Origin: Candidatus Limnocylindria bacterium
Lineage (GTDB): Bacteria; Chloroflexota; Limnocylindria; QHBO01
NCBI GenBank assembly: GCA_039917955.1
Contig: JBDSIN010000184.1
Coordinates: forward strand, 1 to 33,006
Length of the DNA stretch: 33,006 bases
Direction of reading: 5' to 3'
The notes under the pieces were generated by a model. It had not been told where the DNA came from, made no database searches, and saw only the letters and a program-made list of their open reading frames with translations. Positions within the stretch are counted from its first letter, which is position 1; each line of letters opens with the position of its first letter. Made by a program: the position numbers and the translations under genes. This document shows, piece after piece, positions 5,783 to 16,953 of this stretch.

Positions 5783-7449
5783 GAACGCTGCGCGGGGTCG
5801 CGGCCGCCCCGGGAATGGCCTCGGCACCGCCGGCGTTGCTGGAGCCGGCATCCGGCAGCGGGGCCCCGCTCCTCAGGTTGGATGCCGCGGTCGAGGAGTC
5901 CTGCCGGCAGCTCGATCTCCTCGCGGCCCGCCTGCGCGATCGGGGGTTGCCCGACGAGTCGGAGATCCTGGAGGCGCAGGCGCTGATGGCCGCCGACCCA
6001 GAACTGCTCGAGGCTGCGGGCCGACGGATCGCGGCGGGGATGGCCGCCGATGACGCGATTCTCGCCGCCGGCGAGGAAGCCGCAGCGGTGCTCGAGGAGT
6101 TGTCGGACGAGCTGCTCGCGGCGCGCGCCGCGGACGTGCGCGACGTCGCGGCTCGCATCGCCCGCGCGGTGCGCGGCGAGGCACCGCCCCAGCTGAGCCG
6201 GCGCTCAATTCTGGTGGCGCGGGATCTGACGCCCTCGACGACCGCAGAGCTGGATCAGTCCCTGCTCGCCGGACTCGCGCTCGAGGGTGGGTCCCCGACG
6301 GCCCACGCGGCGATCCTGGCGCGCGCATTGGGAATTCCCGCGGTCGTCGGGGTCGCCGGCCTGCTCGCCGCCGCAAGCGGCGCAGCCGAGTTGATGGTGG
6401 ACGGCAACGCCGGCCTGGTGATGCTCGAACCGGGGGCCGAGGACCGCCAGCGCCTCGCGCACTGGGAGACCGAGCATGAGGCCCGGTTGGATGCCGAACG
6501 GGCACTCCACCACCGACTGCTGGCCACCGCTGACGGCCACCGCGTGATGCTGGGCGCCAACATCGGCAGCCCGCACGACGCGTCGGTCGCCCTGCGAGCC
6601 GGGGCGGAGGGGGTGGGCCTGTTCCGCACCGAGTTCGTATTCATGGGACGCCGGCGGGCACCCGACGAGCAGACCCAGGCGGCGGCCTACGCGCAGGTCC
6701 TGCGCGACTTCGGCGAGCGCCCGGTGGTGATTCGCCTGATGGACATCGGGGGCGACAAGCCGCTCCCCTTCGTTGTCCTCGAGCCGGAGCCGAACCCGTT
6801 TTTGGGGGTGCGCGCCATCCGCCTGGCGGAACGCGAGCCGGAGCTGCTCTCCACCCAGTTGCGGGCCATCGTGCGCGCTGCGGCGGAGGCTGGCGTACCG
6901 CGCCCGCTGATCATGGCGCCGATGGTCGCCGACCTCGCGGATGTGCGTCGCGTGCGAGCGCTGCTCGACGAGGCGGTCGCGGCGGTTGGTGCGGCGGTCA
7001 CGCCGCAGCTCGGAATCATGGTCGAGGTGCCATCTGCGATCGTGGTCGCCGATCAGCTCGCCGACGAGGTCGCCTTCTTCAGCGTCGGCACCAATGACCT
7101 GACGCAGTACCTGCTCGCGGCCGATCGCACCAATGCCGCCCTCGCGGAGCGCCAGGACCCGATGCATCCCGCCGTGCTGCGCAGCATTGCCAGCCTCGTC
7201 GCGGCGGCCGCGCCCCGGGGCGTCCCCGTCGCGGTCTGCGGCGAGATGGGCGGTGATCCTGTCGGTGCGGTGGTGCTCACCGGGCTCGGCGTCAGCGAGC
7301 TGTCGATGGGTCCGGCCTCCTTCGGTGCCGTCAAGCGGGCGCTCGCATCGGTCACCCTGGCCGAGGCACAGGAACTCGCGAAGCGCTGCCTCGACGCACC
7401 GGATCCCGCCACCTCGCGGGCCTGGGTCAGCGAGCGGCTGGCGGTCTGA
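5779..7449 (+). CDS. ptsI: PEP-protein phosphotransferase (PTS enzyme I)
   Basis: TAHAAILARALGIP (phospho-His), GLFRTEF, NPFLGVRAIR, FFSVGTNDLTQY and VCGEM. GTGA overlap with HPr. Confidence 0.95.
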   Translation: MRTLRGVAAAPGMASAPPALLEPASGSGAPLLRLDAAVEESCRQLDLLAARLRDRGLPDESEILEAQALMAADPELLEAAGRRIAAGMAADDAILAAGEEAAAVLEELSDELLAARAADVRDVAARIARAVRGEAPPQLSRRSILVARDLTPSTTAELDQSLLAGLALEGGSPTAHAAILARALGIPAVVGVAGLLAAASGAAELMVDGNAGLVMLEPGAEDRQRLAHWETEHEARLDAERALHHRLLATADGHRVMLGANIGSPHDASVALRAGAEGVGLFRTEFVFMGRRRAPDEQTQAAAYAQVLRDFGERPVVIRLMDIGGDKPLPFVVLEPEPNPFLGVRAIRLAEREPELLSTQLRAIVRAAAEAGVPRPLIMAPMVADLADVRRVRALLDEAVAAVGAAVTPQLGIMVEVPSAIVVADQLADEVAFFSVGTNDLTQYLLAADRTNAALAERQDPMHPAVLRSIASLVAAAAPRGVPVAVCGEMGGDPVGAVVLTGLGVSELSMGPASFGAVKRALASVTLAEAQELAKRCLDAPDPATSRAWVSERLAV

Positions 7450-9087: not shown

Positions 9088-9936
9088 ATGAGCGAGGCTG
9101 CCTGGCGGATCGTCCTGATCACCACCGTTCCGCCGGTGGCCGACGCGATGGTGCCCGTCCTGCGCGAGCTTGGTCACGAGCCGGTCGCCATCCTGAGCGC
9201 CCGCCGTGGCCAGCCTTCGGCGGCGGGCCGTCCGCCGATCAACGACGAGACCGCCCCGAGCGGGCTGGACGTGATGATCGCGCGCGACAAGTGGTCGGTC
9301 GAACCGATGCTGCGCGCCTGCCGGCCCGACCTGGCGTTGTGCTGGGGCTTCCCGTGGCGCATTCCACTCGCCGCCCTGCAGGTCCCCTCGCTCGGATCGG
9401 TGAACTGTCATCCGGCGCTGCTGCCACGCCACCGCGGCCCGATCCCCCTCTCCTGGGCGTTCCGCGACGGTGACGGGCAGTTCGGCGTGACCTGGCATCG
9501 CATGGACGCCGAGCTCGACACCGGAGCGATCCTGGCTCAGACGACCGTGCCGATGCACGACGACGACTACGCGATTGAGCAGGTCGGGCCGCGCATCGGC
9601 ACAGCCGCGATCGGCCTGCTGCCGGGCGTGCTGGCCCGAATCGCCGCAGACGACCCCGGCGACCCGCAACCGGCCGAGGGGGTGACCTGGGCCGGGCACT
9701 TCGGCGAGGACTACGCCTCGATCGACTGGTCGCAGCCGGCTCGGCGCATCCACGACCAGGTGCGTGCATGGGCATTCACCTTCGGCCTCTCGAAAGTGGC
9801 TGGCCCGATCGCCGAGCTCGACGGACATCCGGTTAGGGTGCAGCGCACGTCGCTCACCGATCCGAGTGGCGACGCACGCCGGGTCGAATGCGGCGACGGC
9901 CCGATCTGGGTCGTGGAGTACGAGCCGGCGAGCTAG
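9088..9936 (+). CDS. Methionyl-tRNA formyltransferase-like 10-formyl-THF-dependent formyltransferase
   Basis: NCHPALLPRHRGPIP and GVTWHRMDAELDTG carry the Asn/His/Asp triad. IDWSQPA..IH.QVRA begins an Fmt-type C-terminal domain. The Fmt N-terminal FMGTP motif is absent. Confidence 0.8.
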   Translation: MSEAAWRIVLITTVPPVADAMVPVLRELGHEPVAILSARRGQPSAAGRPPINDETAPSGLDVMIARDKWSVEPMLRACRPDLALCWGFPWRIPLAALQVPSLGSVNCHPALLPRHRGPIPLSWAFRDGDGQFGVTWHRMDAELDTGAILAQTTVPMHDDDYAIEQVGPRIGTAAIGLLPGVLARIAADDPGDPQPAEGVTWAGHFGEDYASIDWSQPARRIHDQVRAWAFTFGLSKVAGPIAELDGHPVRVQRTSLTDPSGDARRVECGDGPIWVVEYEPAS

Positions 9937-10193
9937 GCCGCCAGGTCGAGCGCCTCGACGAACCAGCGCCGTCCGCGCGGGTCGTAGACGAGGGTCGCCT
10001 GCCCGCCGCTGCTTTCGACCAGGAAGGTAATCCGCGGGCCGCGCTCGGCGGGATAGGCGGCGGTCTCGTCGCGTACGGCGTCGACCGCGGTGACCGTCAG
10101 CTCGCGACCCGCGACACGAACGGCGGCTGGCCGGGCGCGCTTGCGATCCCAGCGCACCTGCGCTGGGGTTGGGGTGATGGGGGTCAGTGCCAT
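9933..10193 (-). CDS. 86-aa putatively LexA-regulated protein, ImuB C-terminal/DUF6504-like
   Basis: ATG 10193 with AAGGAG SD at 10210-10205. Pattern P..vrv.Gr...V..V...R.tF.V...G....L.YD....RW.V...D resembles DUF6504/ImuB-C by eye. Confidence 0.65.
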   Translation of the reverse strand: MALTPITPTPAQVRWDRKRARPAAVRVAGRELTVTAVDAVRDETAAYPAERGPRITFLVESSGGQATLVYDPRGRRWFVEALDLAA

Positions 10194-10234
10194 GGTGTCG
10201 ATTGCTCCTTGCGCTGCTACCTGCCCTCGGCACT

Positions 10235-10246
10235 GAACAGGTGTTC
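10235..10246. promoter_or_regulatory. LexA (SOS) box GAACAGGTGTTC
   Basis: Exact GAAC-N4-GTTC, identical to the box upstream of lexA, just downstream of the predicted TSS of the 86-aa gene. Confidence 0.85.
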
Positions 10247-10258
10247 GAGTGGAGCCCG

Positions 10259-10287
10259 ATGATACGAACATCTGTTCTAGATGTCAA
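10259..10287 (-). promoter_or_regulatory. Sigma70-type promoter TTGACA-N17-TATCAT with LexA box GAACATCTGTTC in the spacer
   Basis: -35 at 10287-10282, -10 at 10264-10259, box at 10266-10277. Confidence 0.85.
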
Positions 10288-10318
10288 TACCCTGCATCGG
10301 CCCCGGCTCGCATGTTTT

Positions 10319-11533
10319 TCACTCGTCGTCAGGCGGCGCTTCGGGGCGCTCGCCGAAGTCGAATCGGCGTCGATCGGTATGGCCGATCAGTCTTGCCCGA
10401 GTGATGGCGCGCTCCCCGAACCGTTCTCGCACGGCGTCGATGCTTCGGGTGAGTCGATCCCTGCGGTCGGCATCGTCAAAGAGTGTCAGCTGCTGTGCAT
10501 CGGCCAGGTTGATGGCGGTCAGGCCGATCAGGCGGACGGCGCGCTCGGCGGAGAGCACCTTCCGCAGCAGGCTCACGCCGGCGGCGTGGATCGGGCCGGA
10601 CTCGCGCGTCTGGCTCGGCAGCGGCATCTGTCGAGTGATCGTCTCGAACCCCTCGTATCGCAGCTTCAGCTGCACCGCCCCCGCGGCCAGGTCGTGGTGA
10701 CGGAGCCGGCTGGCGACCGATTCGGCCAGGTCGAGCAGCGTCGCCTCAAGGCGCGCCAGGTCGGTGACATCGCGGTCGAAGGTCAGTTCGTGACCGATGC
10801 TCTTGGCCCCCTGGCCGGGCACCACCGGCGAGGGATCCAACCCGCGAGCGCGTTCTGCCAGATCCGCGCCGTGGCTGCCGAAGCGCCGGCGCAGCGTCCC
10901 TTCGGGAAGCGCGGCGAGCTGCCCGATGGTGGCTACTCCGTACTCCGCGAGTGCCTGCCGCGCCTGCGGTCCGACCCCCCACAGCCGGCTCACCGGCAAC
11001 GGTGCGAGGAAAGCTGCCTCTCTGCCGGGCGAGACCACCACCAGCGCGTCGGGCTTGCGCAGGTCCGAGGCGACCTTGGCACACAGCTTGTTCGTCGCCA
11101 CACCGACGCTGACCACCAGCCCGACCTCGTCGACCACGCGCCTCTTTATCGTGCGCGCAATCGTCTCCCCGTTCCCGAACGCTTCTCTGCTGGAGGTCAC
11201 ATCGAGGAACGCCTCGTCGAGGCTCAGCGGTTCGACGAGCGGCGTGAAGGCGGCGAATATCGCCATCACCTGCCCGGACAGGTCTCGATATCGGTCCGGG
11301 CGACCGGGCAGGAAGACGCCGTCAGGGCAGAGCCGCGCCGCCGTGCGCAGCGGCATCGCCGAGTGCACCCCGAATTTCCGTGCCGCGTACGAGGCGGCAC
11401 TCACCACGCCGCGCCCGCCGGGGTCGCCACCGACGATCACGGGCCTACCGCGCAGCGACGGCTGGTCGAGCTCCTCGACGCTGGCGTAGAAGGCGTCGAG
11501 GTCGGCGTGGAGGATGGTGCGCACGGGTGTCAC
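10319..11533 (-). CDS. dinB: Y-family DNA polymerase (DinB/Pol IV-like)
   Basis: HADLDAFYASVE, ASYAARKFGV, SLDEAFLD, KVASDLRKPD and LWGVG motifs; C-terminal QQLTLF clamp motif. An alternative GTG start lies at 11524. Confidence 0.93.
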   Translation of the reverse strand: MTPVRTILHADLDAFYASVEELDQPSLRGRPVIVGGDPGGRGVVSAASYAARKFGVHSAMPLRTAARLCPDGVFLPGRPDRYRDLSGQVMAIFAAFTPLVEPLSLDEAFLDVTSSREAFGNGETIARTIKRRVVDEVGLVVSVGVATNKLCAKVASDLRKPDALVVVSPGREAAFLAPLPVSRLWGVGPQARQALAEYGVATIGQLAALPEGTLRRRFGSHGADLAERARGLDPSPVVPGQGAKSIGHELTFDRDVTDLARLEATLLDLAESVASRLRHHDLAAGAVQLKLRYEGFETITRQMPLPSQTRESGPIHAAGVSLLRKVLSAERAVRLIGLTAINLADAQQLTLFDDADRRDRLTRSIDAVRERFGERAITRARLIGHTDRRRFDFGERPEAPPDDE

Positions 11534-11580
11534 CAGCGTACTGCGGCCGCTGAGGCCGCCATCGGTCTGTAGCCGGCGGA

Positions 11581-12273
11581 TCAGCCGAGCTTGCGAATGA
11601 CGCCGACGACCTTGCCCTGCACCTGGACCTCCGACGCGTAGATCGGCTCCATCTCCGAGTTCGCCGGCTGCAGGCGGATGCGGTCCTTCTCGCGGTAGAA
11701 GCGCTTGAGGGTCACGCCGTTATCCTCGAGCAGGGCAACCACGATGTCGCCGTCGCGGGCGGTCGCCTGCGGCTGCACGACCACGTAGTCGCCGTCGTCG
11801 ATCAGCGCATCGATCATGCTCTTGCCGCGGACGCGGAGGACGTAGGAGTCGTCGCGAGCCTGGAGCGAGCGCGGGACCTCCAGCGTTTCCGTCCCCTCGG
11901 CGTACGCCTCGATCGGTCGTCCGGCGGCGATCTCGCCGATCACTGGCAGCGCCAGCAGATCACGCTCGACCGGCATGCGGAAGGGTGTGACCCGGCCGCG
12001 TTCGGCGGCCTCCCGTGGCACTGCTCGGGGGCGTCCGCCGCTCAACTCGGCCTCGCCCCGAGCGGTCAGCCGCAGTGCGCGCGACGACCGGGAGCCCCGC
12101 TCGATCAGTCCGTCACGCTCGAGCGCAGTCAGGTGATGATGGACGGCCGATGGTGACGCGAGGCCCACCACCTCGCCGATCTCGCGGACGCTGGGTGGGT
12201 AGCCCCGCTCGGCAACCGCACGGGCGATGCTTTCGAGGATTCGCATCCGGCGGGCGGCGTCATGACTGGTCAA
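11581..12273 (-). CDS. lexA: LexA repressor
   Basis: PPSVREIG..VGLASPSAVHHHL winged HTH, IAAG cleavage site, GKSM (Ser) and TLKR (Lys) catalytic dyad. TTG start with AGGAG SD. Confidence 0.96.
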   Translation of the reverse strand: MTSHDAARRMRILESIARAVAERGYPPSVREIGEVVGLASPSAVHHHLTALERDGLIERGSRSSRALRLTARGEAELSGGRPRAVPREAAERGRVTPFRMPVERDLLALPVIGEIAAGRPIEAYAEGTETLEVPRSLQARDDSYVLRVRGKSMIDALIDDGDYVVVQPQATARDGDIVVALLEDNGVTLKRFYREKDRIRLQPANSEMEPIYASEVQVQGKVVGVIRKLG

Positions 12274-12319
12274 GGTTCACTCCTGGTGCGGCGTGGGCTG
12301 CGCACGGTCTTCGGCGCCC

Positions 12320-12349
12320 ACCATAGCCGAACAGGTGTTCTAATGTCAA
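12320..12349 (-). promoter_or_regulatory. lexA promoter TTGACA-N18-TATGGT with LexA box GAACAGGTGTTC (12329-12340)
   Basis: -35 at 12349-12344, -10 at 12325-12320, box in the spacer. This is the classic autorepression arrangement. Confidence 0.85.
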
Positions 12350-12428
12350 CCGATGATGCGGGCTCGCTCTGGTATCATCGCCGCCCACTCGACCCCCCGC
12401 CGCGGGGACCAGAACAGCGGAGGCCCAG

Positions 12429-12983
12429 GTGAACTCGTCCGGCCGATGGCGCCACGCGCGCTTGGCGCGCCTGATCTGGAAGCTGCCCACGTATGCCCGT
12501 GTCATCTGGGGGATGCTCCGAGATCCACGCACGCCGCTGCCGTTGAAAGGGCTGCTCGGTGCCGCGCTGCTGTATCTCGCCGTCCCGATCGACCTGATCC
12601 CCGACGTGATCCCGATTCTCGGCCAGGCTGACGACCTGACGGTGATGATGCTCGTCCTCGACCTGTTCATCGCCAACGCTCCCGCCGAGGTGCGGGCCGA
12701 GCACATGGCACGGGCCCGCAACGGGACCGCCGACCTGGACCGCGACCTGGCACGGCTGCGCTCGCTCCTGGGGCACCGATACGACGAGATCCGCGACCGA
12801 CTTCCCGAGCTCCTGGAGCGGTATGGTGGCCTTCGCGATCCGGCTGCCGTGAAGAACCTGCTCGGCCACTGGCGAGAGCGCCGGGTTCGAGGGGCGCATG
12901 CCGGGGAGCCCGCAGGAGCGGACCAAGACCGAGAGACTGGCCGGCCCGGCGCTCGCGTGCTGACCGGCGCCGACCTGAACTGA
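12429..12983 (+). CDS. DUF1232/YkvA family membrane protein
   Basis: YLAVPIDLIPDVIPILGQADD signature. GGAGG SD and an extended -10 TGGTATCAT at 12370-12378. Confidence 0.8.
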   Translation: MNSSGRWRHARLARLIWKLPTYARVIWGMLRDPRTPLPLKGLLGAALLYLAVPIDLIPDVIPILGQADDLTVMMLVLDLFIANAPAEVRAEHMARARNGTADLDRDLARLRSLLGHRYDEIRDRLPELLERYGGLRDPAAVKNLLGHWRERRVRGAHAGEPAGADQDRETGRPGARVLTGADLN

Positions 12984-13639: not shown

Positions 13640-14989
13640 ATGAGCATCGACAAGCTGGCCCCCCAGGCGGTCGAGGCCGAGCAGAGTGTGCTCGGCTCGA
13701 TCCTGATCGACCCCGAAGCCATCCTCAAGGTGGCCGAGTTCCTGCGTCCGGCCGACTTCTACCGTCAGCCGCATTCCGACATCTACGAGGCGATGCTGGC
13801 GCTGCATGGTCAGCGCGAGCCGATCGACCTGGTGACGCTCGGTGACGAGCTGGCACGCCGCGAACGACTGGAACCGATCGGCGGCCCGGCTTACCTGGCC
13901 AGCGTCATGAACATGGTCCCGACCGCTGTCCACGTCGAGCACTACGGGCGGATCGTCGAGCGTAAGGCCGTGCTCCGCAACCTGATCGGCGCGGCTGGCA
14001 AGATCGCCGCGGTCGGCTACGAGGAGGCCAACGACGCGGAGGCCGCGATCGACCGCGCGGAGGGGATCCTCTTCGAGATCAGCCAGCGCCGCACGGTTGG
14101 CGGCTTCGAATCGCTGGCCACCCTGCTCGGCCTGGCGTACGACCGGCTCGAGTACCTGCACGAGCACCGTGGCCAGATTCTCGGCGTACCGAGCGGGCTG
14201 TCGCAGCTCGATGCGCTGCTCGGCGGCTTCCAACCGTCAGACCTGATCATCCTGGCCGCGCGCCCCAGCGTCGGCAAGACCAGCCTGGCGTTGAATATCG
14301 CGCAGCACGCCGCGATCCGGGAGCGCAAGAAGGTCGGCATCTTCTCGTTGGAGATGAGCCGGGAACAGCTCGCCCTGCGCCTCCTGTCGGCGGAGTCAGG
14401 AATCAATCCACGGCCCCTCCAGAGTGGGTTCGTTGACGAGACCGACTGGAGCAAGATCGCCCAGGTGATGAACGACATGCACGGCGCGCCGATGTGGATC
14501 GACGACTCCCCGGTGCTCACCGTGCTCGAGCTCCGAACCAAGGCCCGGCGACTCGAGGCGGAGCAGCACGGCCTCGACCTGCTGATCGTGGACTACCTGC
14601 AGTTGATGCAGGGCAGCCTCTCCCAGAAGGAGTCGAACCGGGTCCAGGAGGTGAGCGAGATCAGTCGGGGACTCAAGCAGCTCGCCCGCGAGTTGAAGGT
14701 GCCGGTGATCGCGCTGTCGCAGCTGTCCCGCGGGGTGGAGCAGCGCGGCAGTGCCGAGCCGCGCCTCTCGGACCTGCGCGAATCGGGATCGATCGAGCAG
14801 GACGCCGACGTCGTCATCTTCCTATACCGCGACGGTGAGACGACAGCCGATTCGGAGACGGAGCTGATCAAGGCCAAGATCGCCAAGCACCGCAACGGGC
14901 CGATCGGCGAGGTGCCGCTCCAGTTCCGCAAGGCGAACACCCGCTTCTACACCGTGGCCGCTCGCGAGACGGAGGCGGTCGCCTACTAG
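13640..14989 (+). CDS. dnaB: Replicative DNA helicase
   Basis: EAEQSVLG, AARPSVGKT (Walker A), FSLEM, IVDYLQL, LSQLSR, DLRESGSIEQDAD and KHRNGP; 449 aa, no intein. Confidence 0.98.
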   Translation: MSIDKLAPQAVEAEQSVLGSILIDPEAILKVAEFLRPADFYRQPHSDIYEAMLALHGQREPIDLVTLGDELARRERLEPIGGPAYLASVMNMVPTAVHVEHYGRIVERKAVLRNLIGAAGKIAAVGYEEANDAEAAIDRAEGILFEISQRRTVGGFESLATLLGLAYDRLEYLHEHRGQILGVPSGLSQLDALLGGFQPSDLIILAARPSVGKTSLALNIAQHAAIRERKKVGIFSLEMSREQLALRLLSAESGINPRPLQSGFVDETDWSKIAQVMNDMHGAPMWIDDSPVLTVLELRTKARRLEAEQHGLDLLIVDYLQLMQGSLSQKESNRVQEVSEISRGLKQLARELKVPVIALSQLSRGVEQRGSAEPRLSDLRESGSIEQDADVVIFLYRDGETTADSETELIKAKIAKHRNGPIGEVPLQFRKANTRFYTVAARETEAVAY

Positions 14990-15049
14990 CGCGCAGATCG
15001 GCCAACATTCGACGAGTTTTGGACTCTAGGCACACCGTGGGCCCGTGTG

Positions 15050-15186
15050 TATAGTCGGGCGCTGAACGTCCGGTTCACGGCTCCGCCCGAGTCAGACCGA
15101 TCCCGATAGCCGCGATCAGCCCAGGCCCGAGTGGACAGCGCCGTCCATTCCGGGACCGGACGCGCCATGGAGGAGGTCAGGGAAGG
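15050..15186 (+). promoter_or_regulatory. Putative promoter (TATAGT 15050-15055) and structured ~125-nt 5' leader
   Basis: Hairpins at 15063-15077 and 15126-15154; long-range complement between 15067-15074 and 15155-15162. Confidence 0.45.
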
Positions 15187-15495
15187 GTGTACGCGGACAA
15201 GACGATCAGTTGTCGCGACTGCGGCATGGACTTCGTGTTCTCCAGCGGCGAACAGCAGTTCTACGCGGAGAAGGGTCTGGTCAATGAGCCGCAGCGCTGC
15301 CAGAGCTGTCGCTCGGTGGCGAAGCAGAACCGGGCCCTCGGGATCAGCTCCGGCGGTGGCTCCGGCCAGCGTGAGATGCACGCCGCGGTGTGCGCCGAGT
15401 GCGGTGGCCAGGCACTGGTGCCGTTCCTGCCGCGCAACGACCGCCCGGTCTACTGCAGCAGCTGCTTCGACAAGGTGCGCGAGATCCGCACCTGA
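15187..15495 (+). CDS. Zinc-ribbon plus CxxC-x17-CxxC domain protein
   Basis: DK.I.CRDCG..F.FS.GEQ.FY.EKG..NEP.RC..CR followed by CAEC-x17-CSSC. Confidence 0.9.
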   Translation: MYADKTISCRDCGMDFVFSSGEQQFYAEKGLVNEPQRCQSCRSVAKQNRALGISSGGGSGQREMHAAVCAECGGQALVPFLPRNDRPVYCSSCFDKVREIRT

Positions 15496-15516
15496 CCCTT
15501 GGGTGCAGCGACCGAT

Positions 15517-15542
15517 GAAGCGCCGCCCCGGGGCGGCGCTTC
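15517..15542 (+). terminator. Perfect 26-nt palindrome, probable terminator hairpin
   Basis: GAAGCGCCGCCCCGGGGCGGCGCTTC is its own reverse complement and starts about 20 nt after the stop codon. Confidence 0.6.
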
Positions 15543-15600
15543 GGGCGTTCCCGAGCGCTAGGATTGCCCGGCCCACCCCGCACCCGAGGTCCTCGCATCC

Positions 15601-16953
15601 ATGTCCGTGATCGCCGTGGTCGGCGCCCAATGGGGCGACGAGGGGAAGGGGCGGGTCGTTGACTACCTGGCGACCGACGCCGACCTGGTGGTCCGCTACG
15701 GGGGCGGCAACAACGCAGGGCACACCGTGGTCAACCGACATGGCCACTTCAAGCTGCATCTGATCCCGTCGGGGATCTTCTATCCGGAGACGCGCAATCT
15801 TCTTGGCAACGGGGTGGTGATTCACCCACCGGCGCTGGTCCGCGAACTCGATGGGCTGGCAACGGCAGGATTCGACTGCGCCAATCTGTTCATCAGCGAT
15901 CGCGCGCACCTGGTGATGCCCTACCACATCCTGCTCGACCAGCTGGAGGAGCGCGAGCGCGGCTCGGCGAAACTCGGCACGACGAGCAGGGGTATCGGGC
16001 CCGCCTACGTGGACAAGGTCGCACGCCGCGGGATCCGGGTGATCGACCTGATGGAGCCCGATCTGTTCAGTGAGCGGCTGTCGGTCGCCCTGCGTCGGGT
16101 GAAGCGAATCGTGTCGGGCTACTTCGCCGCCGGCGGCGAGGCGGACGAGATGCGCGAGGCGATCGACGAGGCCACCGACGAGGAGCGGATCGCGGCTGAC
16201 TACCTCGCGGCCGGAGAGCGACTGGCGGACCACGTCGTGGACGGGCACGCGATGGTCGACTCGGCGCTGCTCGCCGGACAGCGGATCCTGCTGGAGGGGC
16301 AGCTCGGCACGATGCGCGACATCGACTGGGGGATCTACCCGTACGTGACCAGCTCGAACCCGATCCCCGGCGGCGCGTCGATCGGCGCCGGGCTGCCGGC
16401 GGTGGCGATCGACCAGGTCCTGGGCGTGGCCAAGGCCTACACCACCGCGGTCGGCGCCGGCCCGTTGCCGACCGAGCTGCTCGACCCCGACGGCGAGCTG
16501 CTGCGAGAGCGGGGCGCAGAGTACGGAACCTCCACCGGCCGTCCGCGGCGCTGCGGCTGGTACGACGCCGTCGCCGTCAGCTTCAGCGTCCGGCTGGCCG
16601 GCTACTCGAGCATCGCGCTCACCAAGCTCGACGTGCTCGACGGCTTCGAGCGGCTACAGGTCTGCGTCGCCTACCGGGACCCGGCGACCGGGGCCGAATG
16701 GCGAACCGTGCCGGCGTCGACATCGGTCTACGAACGGCTCGAGCCGATCTATGAAGGGCATCCCGGCTGGCAGACCGATACGACGGGCTGCCGCGCCTGG
16801 GACGACCTGCCGCCGGCGGCGCGCGCCTATGTCGATCGGCTGGAGGAGCTGGCGGGCACACGCATCTCGCTGGTGAGCGTTGGCCCGGAGCGCGACCAGA
16901 TGATCGTGCGGAAGCCGCGCGTAACGAGCGGGGCGACCGCCCTCGCGTTGTGA
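15601..16953 (+). CDS. purA: Adenylosuccinate synthetase
   Basis: GAQWGDEGKG, GGNNAGHT, GIGPAYVDK, YPYVTSS, TGRPRRCGW and TKLDVL motifs. Confidence 0.97.
   Translation: MSVIAVVGAQWGDEGKGRVVDYLATDADLVVRYGGGNNAGHTVVNRHGHFKLHLIPSGIFYPETRNLLGNGVVIHPPALVRELDGLATAGFDCANLFISDRAHLVMPYHILLDQLEERERGSAKLGTTSRGIGPAYVDKVARRGIRVIDLMEPDLFSERLSVALRRVKRIVSGYFAAGGEADEMREAIDEATDEERIAADYLAAGERLADHVVDGHAMVDSALLAGQRILLEGQLGTMRDIDWGIYPYVTSSNPIPGGASIGAGLPAVAIDQVLGVAKAYTTAVGAGPLPTELLDPDGELLRERGAEYGTSTGRPRRCGWYDAVAVSFSVRLAGYSSIALTKLDVLDGFERLQVCVAYRDPATGAEWRTVPASTSVYERLEPIYEGHPGWQTDTTGCRAWDDLPPAARAYVDRLEELAGTRISLVSVGPERDQMIVRKPRVTSGATALAL

Follow-up and report, generated by a model that had tools for sequence, protein, structure and literature searches.

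Pairings of a catalytically active Y-family polymerase (PolY) with a standalone ImuB-C accessory protein have already been described by comparative genomics. Aravind 2013 (PMC3765255) reported the standalone domain most often in combination with DinB, commonly together with LexA, and gave a C-terminal tryptophan and two basic residues as hallmarks of the ImuB-C family. Timinskas & Venclovas 2019 (PMC6511836) described an active PolY with a standalone ImuB-C and proposed RecA as a third partner; such PolYs were required to have a feature resembling the RecA N terminus (RecA-NT), imuA was absent from the genome in the variants described, and the Geobacter sulfurreducens operon lexA-imuB-C-polY was damage induced. 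A survey in NAR in 2026 (PMC12926913) included active PolY with standalone ImuB-C among 11 module types, all modelled as complexes, and stated that ImuB-C, whose barrel is not SH3-like, is without a close relative in the Protein Data Bank (PDB). A Deinococcus review (2021) called the role of the standalone ImuB-C unclear. Here, we report a cassette of lexA, dinB and a small gene in a 33,006-nucleotide (nt) stretch of DNA from a Candidatus Limnocylindria bacterium ("the window"; contig JBDSIN010000184.1, our C184, of GenBank assembly GCA_039917955.1; 1.85 Mb, 257 contigs, 88.9% complete), in which the small gene is, by profile comparison, a divergent, dinB-linked paralogue of this known accessory domain that escapes detection by Pfam.

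A preliminary description of this stretch had put the cassette forward as an undescribed system. That claim does not hold, as active PolY, standalone ImuB-C and lexA occur together in PMC3765255, PMC6511836 and PMC12926913. Chloroflexi are not mentioned in the main text of PMC6511836 or PMC12926913, and the string "Limnocylindr" has no occurrence in the main or supplementary text of either paper (one supplement only partly covered). Our literature search returned no paper using the term "DUF6504" and none joining "Limnocylindria" with "LexA."

A divergent ImuB-C-like gene

The small gene (9933..10193, minus strand; family A1) was best read as an 86-amino-acid (aa) frame from the ATG at 10193, because a ribosome-binding site (AAGGAG, 10205-10210, minus strand) lies 8 nt before this ATG, because most of the 120 homologues listed are 86 aa long, and because the alternative open reading frame (ORF) of 112 aa, reaching up to 10271, would cover the operators. 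Profile comparison and an AlphaFold2 (AF2) model describe its product as an all-beta protein with a divergent, standalone ImuB-C-like domain. Homologues numbered 142 at E<=1e-3 in a set of 5.8 billion proteins (most 86 aa), with 69 representatives in a 50%-clustered library, and public sources place these relatives in Chloroflexota/Candidatus Limnocylindria.

Family membership was assessed with three alignments: A1, the window family (49 sequences); A2, 17 standalone ORFs (~79 aa) matching PF20114 (DUF6504), taken from elsewhere in the phylum, 11 of which lie within 1.5 kb of an imuB-like and/or dnaE2-like gene; and A3, strong DUF6504 proteins (~120 aa) without a polymerase neighbour, also from elsewhere in the phylum. 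In hhalign, A1 aligned with A2 over 77 columns, almost its full length (96.5%; E 9.2e-10), and A2 with A3 at 97.9% (E 5e-13). Searches of whole-genome six-frame sets were reciprocal: the A2 hidden Markov model (HMM) matched the A1 gene itself in 7 genomes (E 8.4e-9 to 3.1e-5) and had the window gene as its sole match in its own genome (E 0.0054), and in three genomes of class family f2 (G019, G046 and G055), the A1 HMM matched the ImuB-C ORF that immediately precedes dnaE2 (E ~8e-4). The AF2 models of A1 (pLDDT 81.6; no helix and no transmembrane segment) and A2 (pLDDT 86.4) each have six strands, in the same order and at matching positions, so that A1 is predicted to be built only of beta-strands, as is the ~80-residue ImuB-C domain. 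Residue R41 of A1 is invariant and W77 and R54 are each found in at least 90% of sequences; in the hhalign alignment, these three pair with the invariant W72 and two arginines of A2. In the nearest Atlas clusters (Chloroflexota, feature neighbours), 23% and 13% of the members have a PF20114 domain, which serves as a lead only.

The preliminary assignment of the small protein as ImuB-C/DUF6504-like thus stands by profile comparison and reciprocal HMM matches, and not by Pfam itself. Neither the 86-aa nor the 112-aa form matched PF20114 (gathering threshold, 24.2 bits) at E<=1, and no match was found in the genome itself or in the class members among 201 phylum genomes searched; two distant representatives remained below the threshold (22.3 bits; E 0.052). 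Structure searches with the A1 model gave no relative, as Foldseek against the PDB returned nothing at E<=0.001 (best, 0.37) and the best hits of VIA-align wide were propeller blades and similar folds at noise level (Z 5.3). A sequence profile search of the PDB with the small protein returned only a de novo design (E 0.17). On the sequence evidence, A1 is very probably a member of the ImuB-C superfamily that falls short of the formal Pfam threshold, and in that case the Pfam model overlooks an entire clade-wide ImuB-C subfamily. Kinship with YolD (PF08863) or UmuD (PF00717) was considered and rejected, as neither Pfam model matched the small protein; the genome has no YolD.

The strongest DUF6504 proteins (L055-L062, from other Chloroflexota) are a separate branch of the family; they are ~120 aa long and share 29 invariant residues, among which is a PxCP motif. 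Within 1.5 kb of these, our probe proteins detected neither a polymerase nor a lexA gene.

Predicted LexA control and linkage to dinB

ORF reading confirmed that the three genes of the cassette are co-oriented, all on the minus strand. The product of lexA (11581..12273, minus strand, TTG start) is a LexA of 230 aa (TIGR00498, 1.1e-58; PF01726 [LexA_DNA_bind] and PF00717 [Peptidase_S24]) and the sole S24 peptidase above the cut-off in this genome. It is followed after 47 nt (lexA stop to dinB start) by dinB (10319..11533, minus strand), which encodes a polymerase IV (Pol IV) of 404 aa (IMS, 2.3e-49; IMS_HHH; IMS_C, 1.8e-27; NF002677 "DNA polymerase IV," 371 bits against a cut-off of 256).

Exact GAAC-N4-GTTC boxes occur four times in the window (10235, 10266, 12329 and 15250) against 0.17 expected, a count reached in 0 of 100 shuffles; the whole genome has 25. 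Between 9700 and 12600, a promoter scan gave exactly two candidate promoter sites, both sigma-70-like, where 0.2 were expected. The lexA promoter (TTGACA-18-TATGGT, 12320..12349, minus strand; 10/12 matches) has the exact box GAACAGGTGTTC (plus-strand letters; 12329..12340) in its spacer. The promoter of the small gene (TTGACA-17-TATCAT, 10259..10287, minus strand; 11/12 matches) likewise holds an exact box in its spacer (10266..10277), and a second exact box (10235..10246) follows the -10 hexamer at a distance of 13 nt and is 31 nt from the first. Both the three boxes and the shared promoter architecture, TTGACA with a box within the spacer, had been noted in the preliminary description. With predicted operators in the spacer and just past the -10 hexamer, the small gene has the arrangement of a LexA-regulon member. 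The 47 nt separating lexA from dinB gave neither a promoter-like site in the promoter scan nor a box in the box search, from which we infer that the two are co-transcribed.

The distribution of the gene was determined in a class sample of 121 genomes (tallies include the unpublished G067, G087, G091, G096, G106 and G112; G087 is in the A1 count). A1 is a single-copy gene in 83 of the 121, with 39/40 genomes in family f1, 35/35 in f3, 5/5 in f4 and 0/1 in f5; the 3/39 matches in f2 are weak, and all three are canonical ImuB-C. Synteny was read in twenty 10-kb loci from 20 genomes. There, dinB adjoins the small gene in 19 loci (immediately upstream and co-oriented in 16; divergent in 3, all f4) and is 2.5 kb away in the remaining one; lexA lies within 10 kb in 15. 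Conservation near dinB and lexA, for which the preliminary description had proposed a survey, is thereby established, and the A1 gene has Y-family polymerase and lexA neighbours of the kind used to recognize ImuB-C. The operators were conserved as well: the small gene has two exact boxes upstream of it in 19/20 loci (one box in 1/20), and an exact box stands beside lexA in all 15 loci containing it. One gene call (P0162) reads through and joins IMS_C with the small protein.

Some neighbouring features were also recorded. A formyltransferase-like gene (PF00551 and PF02911; 9088-9936, plus strand) converges on the small gene, the two ORF ends sharing 4 nt, and no terminator-like site was found in 9700-12600. 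On the other side of the cassette, a DUF1232 gene (PF06803, 5e-13; 12429-12983, plus strand) is divergent from lexA, ~155 nt from the lexA start, and may have a LexA operator region in common with it; this divergent pairing recurs in 12/20 of the related loci, and a DUF1232 match is present in 14/20. The fourth box, GAACAGCAGTTC (15250-15261), lies downstream of dnaB within two overlapping ORFs (14986-16248, minus strand; 15131-15610, plus strand) and could be a chance occurrence, since the genome has 25 exact boxes per 1.85 Mb. The recA gene of this genome (contig C177, about 6644-7381) is truncated by the contig end; in the stretch that starts 400 nt ahead of its open frame and extends 200 nt into it, neither an exact LexA box nor any of the one-base variants searched was found.

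Polymerase partners and alternative readings

The DinB of the cassette appears to be catalytically intact. Its translation contains the motifs HADLDAF and SLDEAF, and residues D11, D13, D106 and E107 are invariant among 19 orthologues, catalytic D11, D106 and E107 among them, so that the wording "apparently active" in the preliminary description was fair. The C terminus has the beta-clamp motif QLTLF and then a RecA-NT-like stretch, which has the pattern I..V/I..FG..AI.R in common with the N terminus of the RecA of this genome (judged by eye, without a profile). A QLxLF motif followed by the RecA-NT-like motif ends 29/29 DinB orthologues read. An intact PolY with such a motif after the clamp motif is what characterizes the described PolY-[ImuB-C]-RecA modules, and DinB has both. 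A complex prediction for DinB (alignment A4, 19 rows) with A1, run without controls, gave 0.00, 0.33 and 0.00 against a mark of 0.32 and speaks neither for nor against binding. In one congener (G003, 97% complete), dinB (contig C1, locus L041; 5352-6575, minus strand; 53% identity to the window DinB) has an in-frame stop, owing to which it was left out of the DinB alignment; the small gene and double box at this locus are intact despite it.

A second error-prone polymerase is encoded outside the window. A search of the genome for dnaE2, proposed in the preliminary description, found two Pol III alpha genes: DnaE1 on contig C255 (NF004226, 1183 bits against a cut-off of 1002) and DnaE2 (1303 aa) on contig C23 (G000, locus L085; 3274-7185, plus strand; NF004225, 1080.8 bits against a cut-off of 939). 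The dnaE2 promoter (TTGCGG-16-TATCAT) contains the LexA box GAACATCTGTTC, 17 nt before the ATG. Across the class, DnaE2 exceeds the cut-off in 93/121 genomes. An insertion of ~200 aa (roughly residues 516-716), without a Pfam match, splits the Pol III alpha domain of the DnaE2 from this genome; frame lengths are about 1245-1390 aa in f1 and f3 and about 1070-1150 aa in f2 and f4.

Relatives carry a fuller set of mutagenesis genes. The congeners G003 and G009 have a LexA box followed by an imuA-like gene, an N-terminally reduced imuB-like gene and a separate 84-aa canonical ImuB-C ORF, and dnaE2, with its own box, lies 5-7 kb beyond this operon. Their imuA-like protein has a RecA fold (PF00154, 8.5e-21) and scores 51.8 bits, below the cut-off, with the ImuA model. 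In f4, imuA-like, imuB-like, imuB-C and dnaE2 form one cassette, and genomes G065 and G011 have a LexA-boxed imuA-like gene of RecA fold, followed by the imuB-like gene; in f2, the ImuB-C ORF abuts dnaE2. Canonical-type ImuB-C was found in 109/121 class genomes, with weak matches in 2/2 f4 loci examined. A search of the window's genome for imuA-like, imuB-like and canonical ImuB-C genes returned nothing beyond recA, dinB and the window gene; the absence of the three from this incomplete assembly is probably an assembly gap, because contig C23 reaches only 3.2 kb upstream of dnaE2, whereas the G003 operon lies ~7 kb upstream. The absence of imuA and dnaE2 noted for the window in the preliminary description is correct there, as is that of umuD, and does not extend beyond it, given the LexA-boxed dnaE2 on C23 and the imuA-like genes of congeners. 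The idea of an undescribed mutasome lacking imuA and dnaE2 fails on the same LexA-boxed dnaE2 and on the imuA-like, imuB-like and imuB-C genes of relatives. The genome-wide lack of imuA that marks the described PolY-[ImuB-C]-RecA variants does not apply to G003, G009, G065 and G011 either, all of which carry an imuA-like gene. Judged from these sequences, the window gene is a second ImuB-C paralogue, divergent and dinB-linked, rather than the only ImuB-C of the class.

We regard it as probable that the small protein is an SOS-gated, ImuB-C-like accessory of DinB in a complex of the PolY-[ImuB-C]-RecA type, a reading that draws on linkage and homology. Under this mechanism, LexA would repress itself, would probably repress dinB through read-through from the lexA promoter, and would repress the separate 86-aa gene via two operators that overlap and follow its strong promoter. 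DNA damage would lead to RecA-stimulated cleavage of LexA and so release the small protein, which would assist the active Y-family polymerase DinB as an accessory subunit without catalytic activity. DinB (with its clamp motif and then its RecA-NT-like motif), the ImuB-C-like protein and RecA would make up a translesion complex, as proposed by Timinskas & Venclovas. LexA binding, damage induction and every protein-protein contact are thus predictions.

Several observations weigh against this mechanism. The small protein matched nothing in Pfam or NCBIfam, A1 aligned with A3 at only 18.7% (E 0.0013), and A1 has lost two of the three or four conserved tryptophans of canonical ImuB-C. In family f2, the orthologous dinB encodes both the clamp and the RecA-NT motifs although there is no A1 gene, and DinB therefore does not need A1. 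No LexA box (<=1 mismatch) was found within 300 nt upstream of dinB in 25/29 loci, and SOS control of dinB is not evident outside the lexA-adjacent arrangement; because dinB is un-boxed in these 25 loci, the constant feature across loci would be LexA control of the small gene rather than of dinB. Adjacency could also reflect shared regulation rather than contact, and the genome has a dnaE2 of its own.

That dnaE2 gives substance to a different reading, in which DnaE2 is the partner of the small protein. The protein would then be another ImuB-C adaptor for DnaE2, or it would link the two polymerases by passing the primer from DinB to DnaE2, and its adjacency to dinB would come from co-regulation. 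The LexA-boxed, above-threshold DnaE2 of this genome and the 93 class genomes with a DnaE2 over the cut-off fit such a role, and so does PMC12926913, in which the ImuB-C of ImuB is modelled to bind DnaE2's PHP domain as well as ImuA and in which a DnaE2-[ImuB-C]-PolY-RecA module is catalogued in Actinobacteria. We nonetheless consider it unlikely. Every class family has a canonical ImuB-C ORF by imuB-like and dnaE2 (109/121 genomes), and DnaE2 therefore already has its own adaptor; moreover, the A1 gene never adjoins dnaE2 in the loci read, and family f2 keeps DnaE2 without A1.

A role on DNA itself, as a recruiter binding damaged or single-stranded DNA and not as a stoichiometric polymerase subunit, was proposed for ImuB-C in PMC3765255, which also placed standalone ImuB-C beside non-polymerase repair genes. 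The two invariant or near-invariant arginines and the basic RRW motif of A1 agree with it, whereas the tight and exclusive dinB linkage in the class and the lack of a match to any known DNA-binding fold in the Foldseek and VIA searches given above make it quite improbable here. Small SOS-induced effectors are common near lexA in other bacteria, and with no Pfam match, the small protein might be taken for an unrelated effector, for example a division inhibitor or toxin, with a spurious resemblance to ImuB-C. The reciprocal profile and HMM matches against whole-genome backgrounds, the six-strand pattern of ImuB-C in the A1 model and the absence of transmembrane or helical segments from that model leave this reading very little credence.

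Relation to described systems

If the small protein is an accessory of DinB, the two ImuB-C paralogues might sort two error-prone polymerases between them, a suggestion that we offer tentatively. The canonical one would belong to the imuA-like/imuB-like/DnaE2 mutasome, and the divergent, doubly operated one would be a late-SOS switch on DinB that operates only when damage is heavy, turning a Pol IV that is largely constitutive (because dinB is un-boxed in most loci) into a RecA-dependent mutasome or passing its product on to DnaE2. No bench test of the role of a standalone ImuB-C was found in the ImuB-C literature as far as our search covered it. The class offers a natural comparison, as one 86-aa paralogue accompanies an active DinB, a second accompanies DnaE2 in the same genome, and f2 is without the first, so that the partner specificity of ImuB-C domains can be tested directly. 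Apart from this comparison and the gap in Pfam, nothing sets the locus apart from ordinary SOS mutagenesis modules.

The likeness to UmuD' and YolD/YqjX of Pol V-type mutasomes is one of functional analogy only, a small SOS-induced beta-protein with a Y-family polymerase bearing a RecA-NT motif; no sequence relation of A1 to them was found. LexA-controlled mutagenesis cassettes with a standalone ImuB-C of ~80 aa resemble the imuA-like/imuB-like/imuB-C and dnaE2 clusters of relatives, but these correspond to the A2-type ImuB-C of the class and not to the window gene, and their Y-family partner is inactive. With the ImuB-C fused to ImuB, A1 has in common its superfamily (by profile), the conserved C-terminal tryptophan and basic residues, and the SOS regulon, and both are without a PDB relative (PMC12926913 and the PDB searches here); it differs in being free-standing, in its linkage with an active DinB rather than a dead ImuB, and in lying apart from dnaE2 and imuA. 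The closest likeness is to the GeoPolY-like systems exemplified by the G. sulfurreducens operon, which similarly combine a standalone ImuB-C, an active PolY and lexA without imuA in the locus. In contrast to these, the A1 sequence lies below Pfam detection of DUF6504, the gene order is lexA-dinB-small gene instead of lexA-imuB-C-polY, a separate promoter with two operators serves the small gene, and the system is found in Chloroflexota (Candidatus Limnocylindria), alongside a second, canonical ImuB-C.

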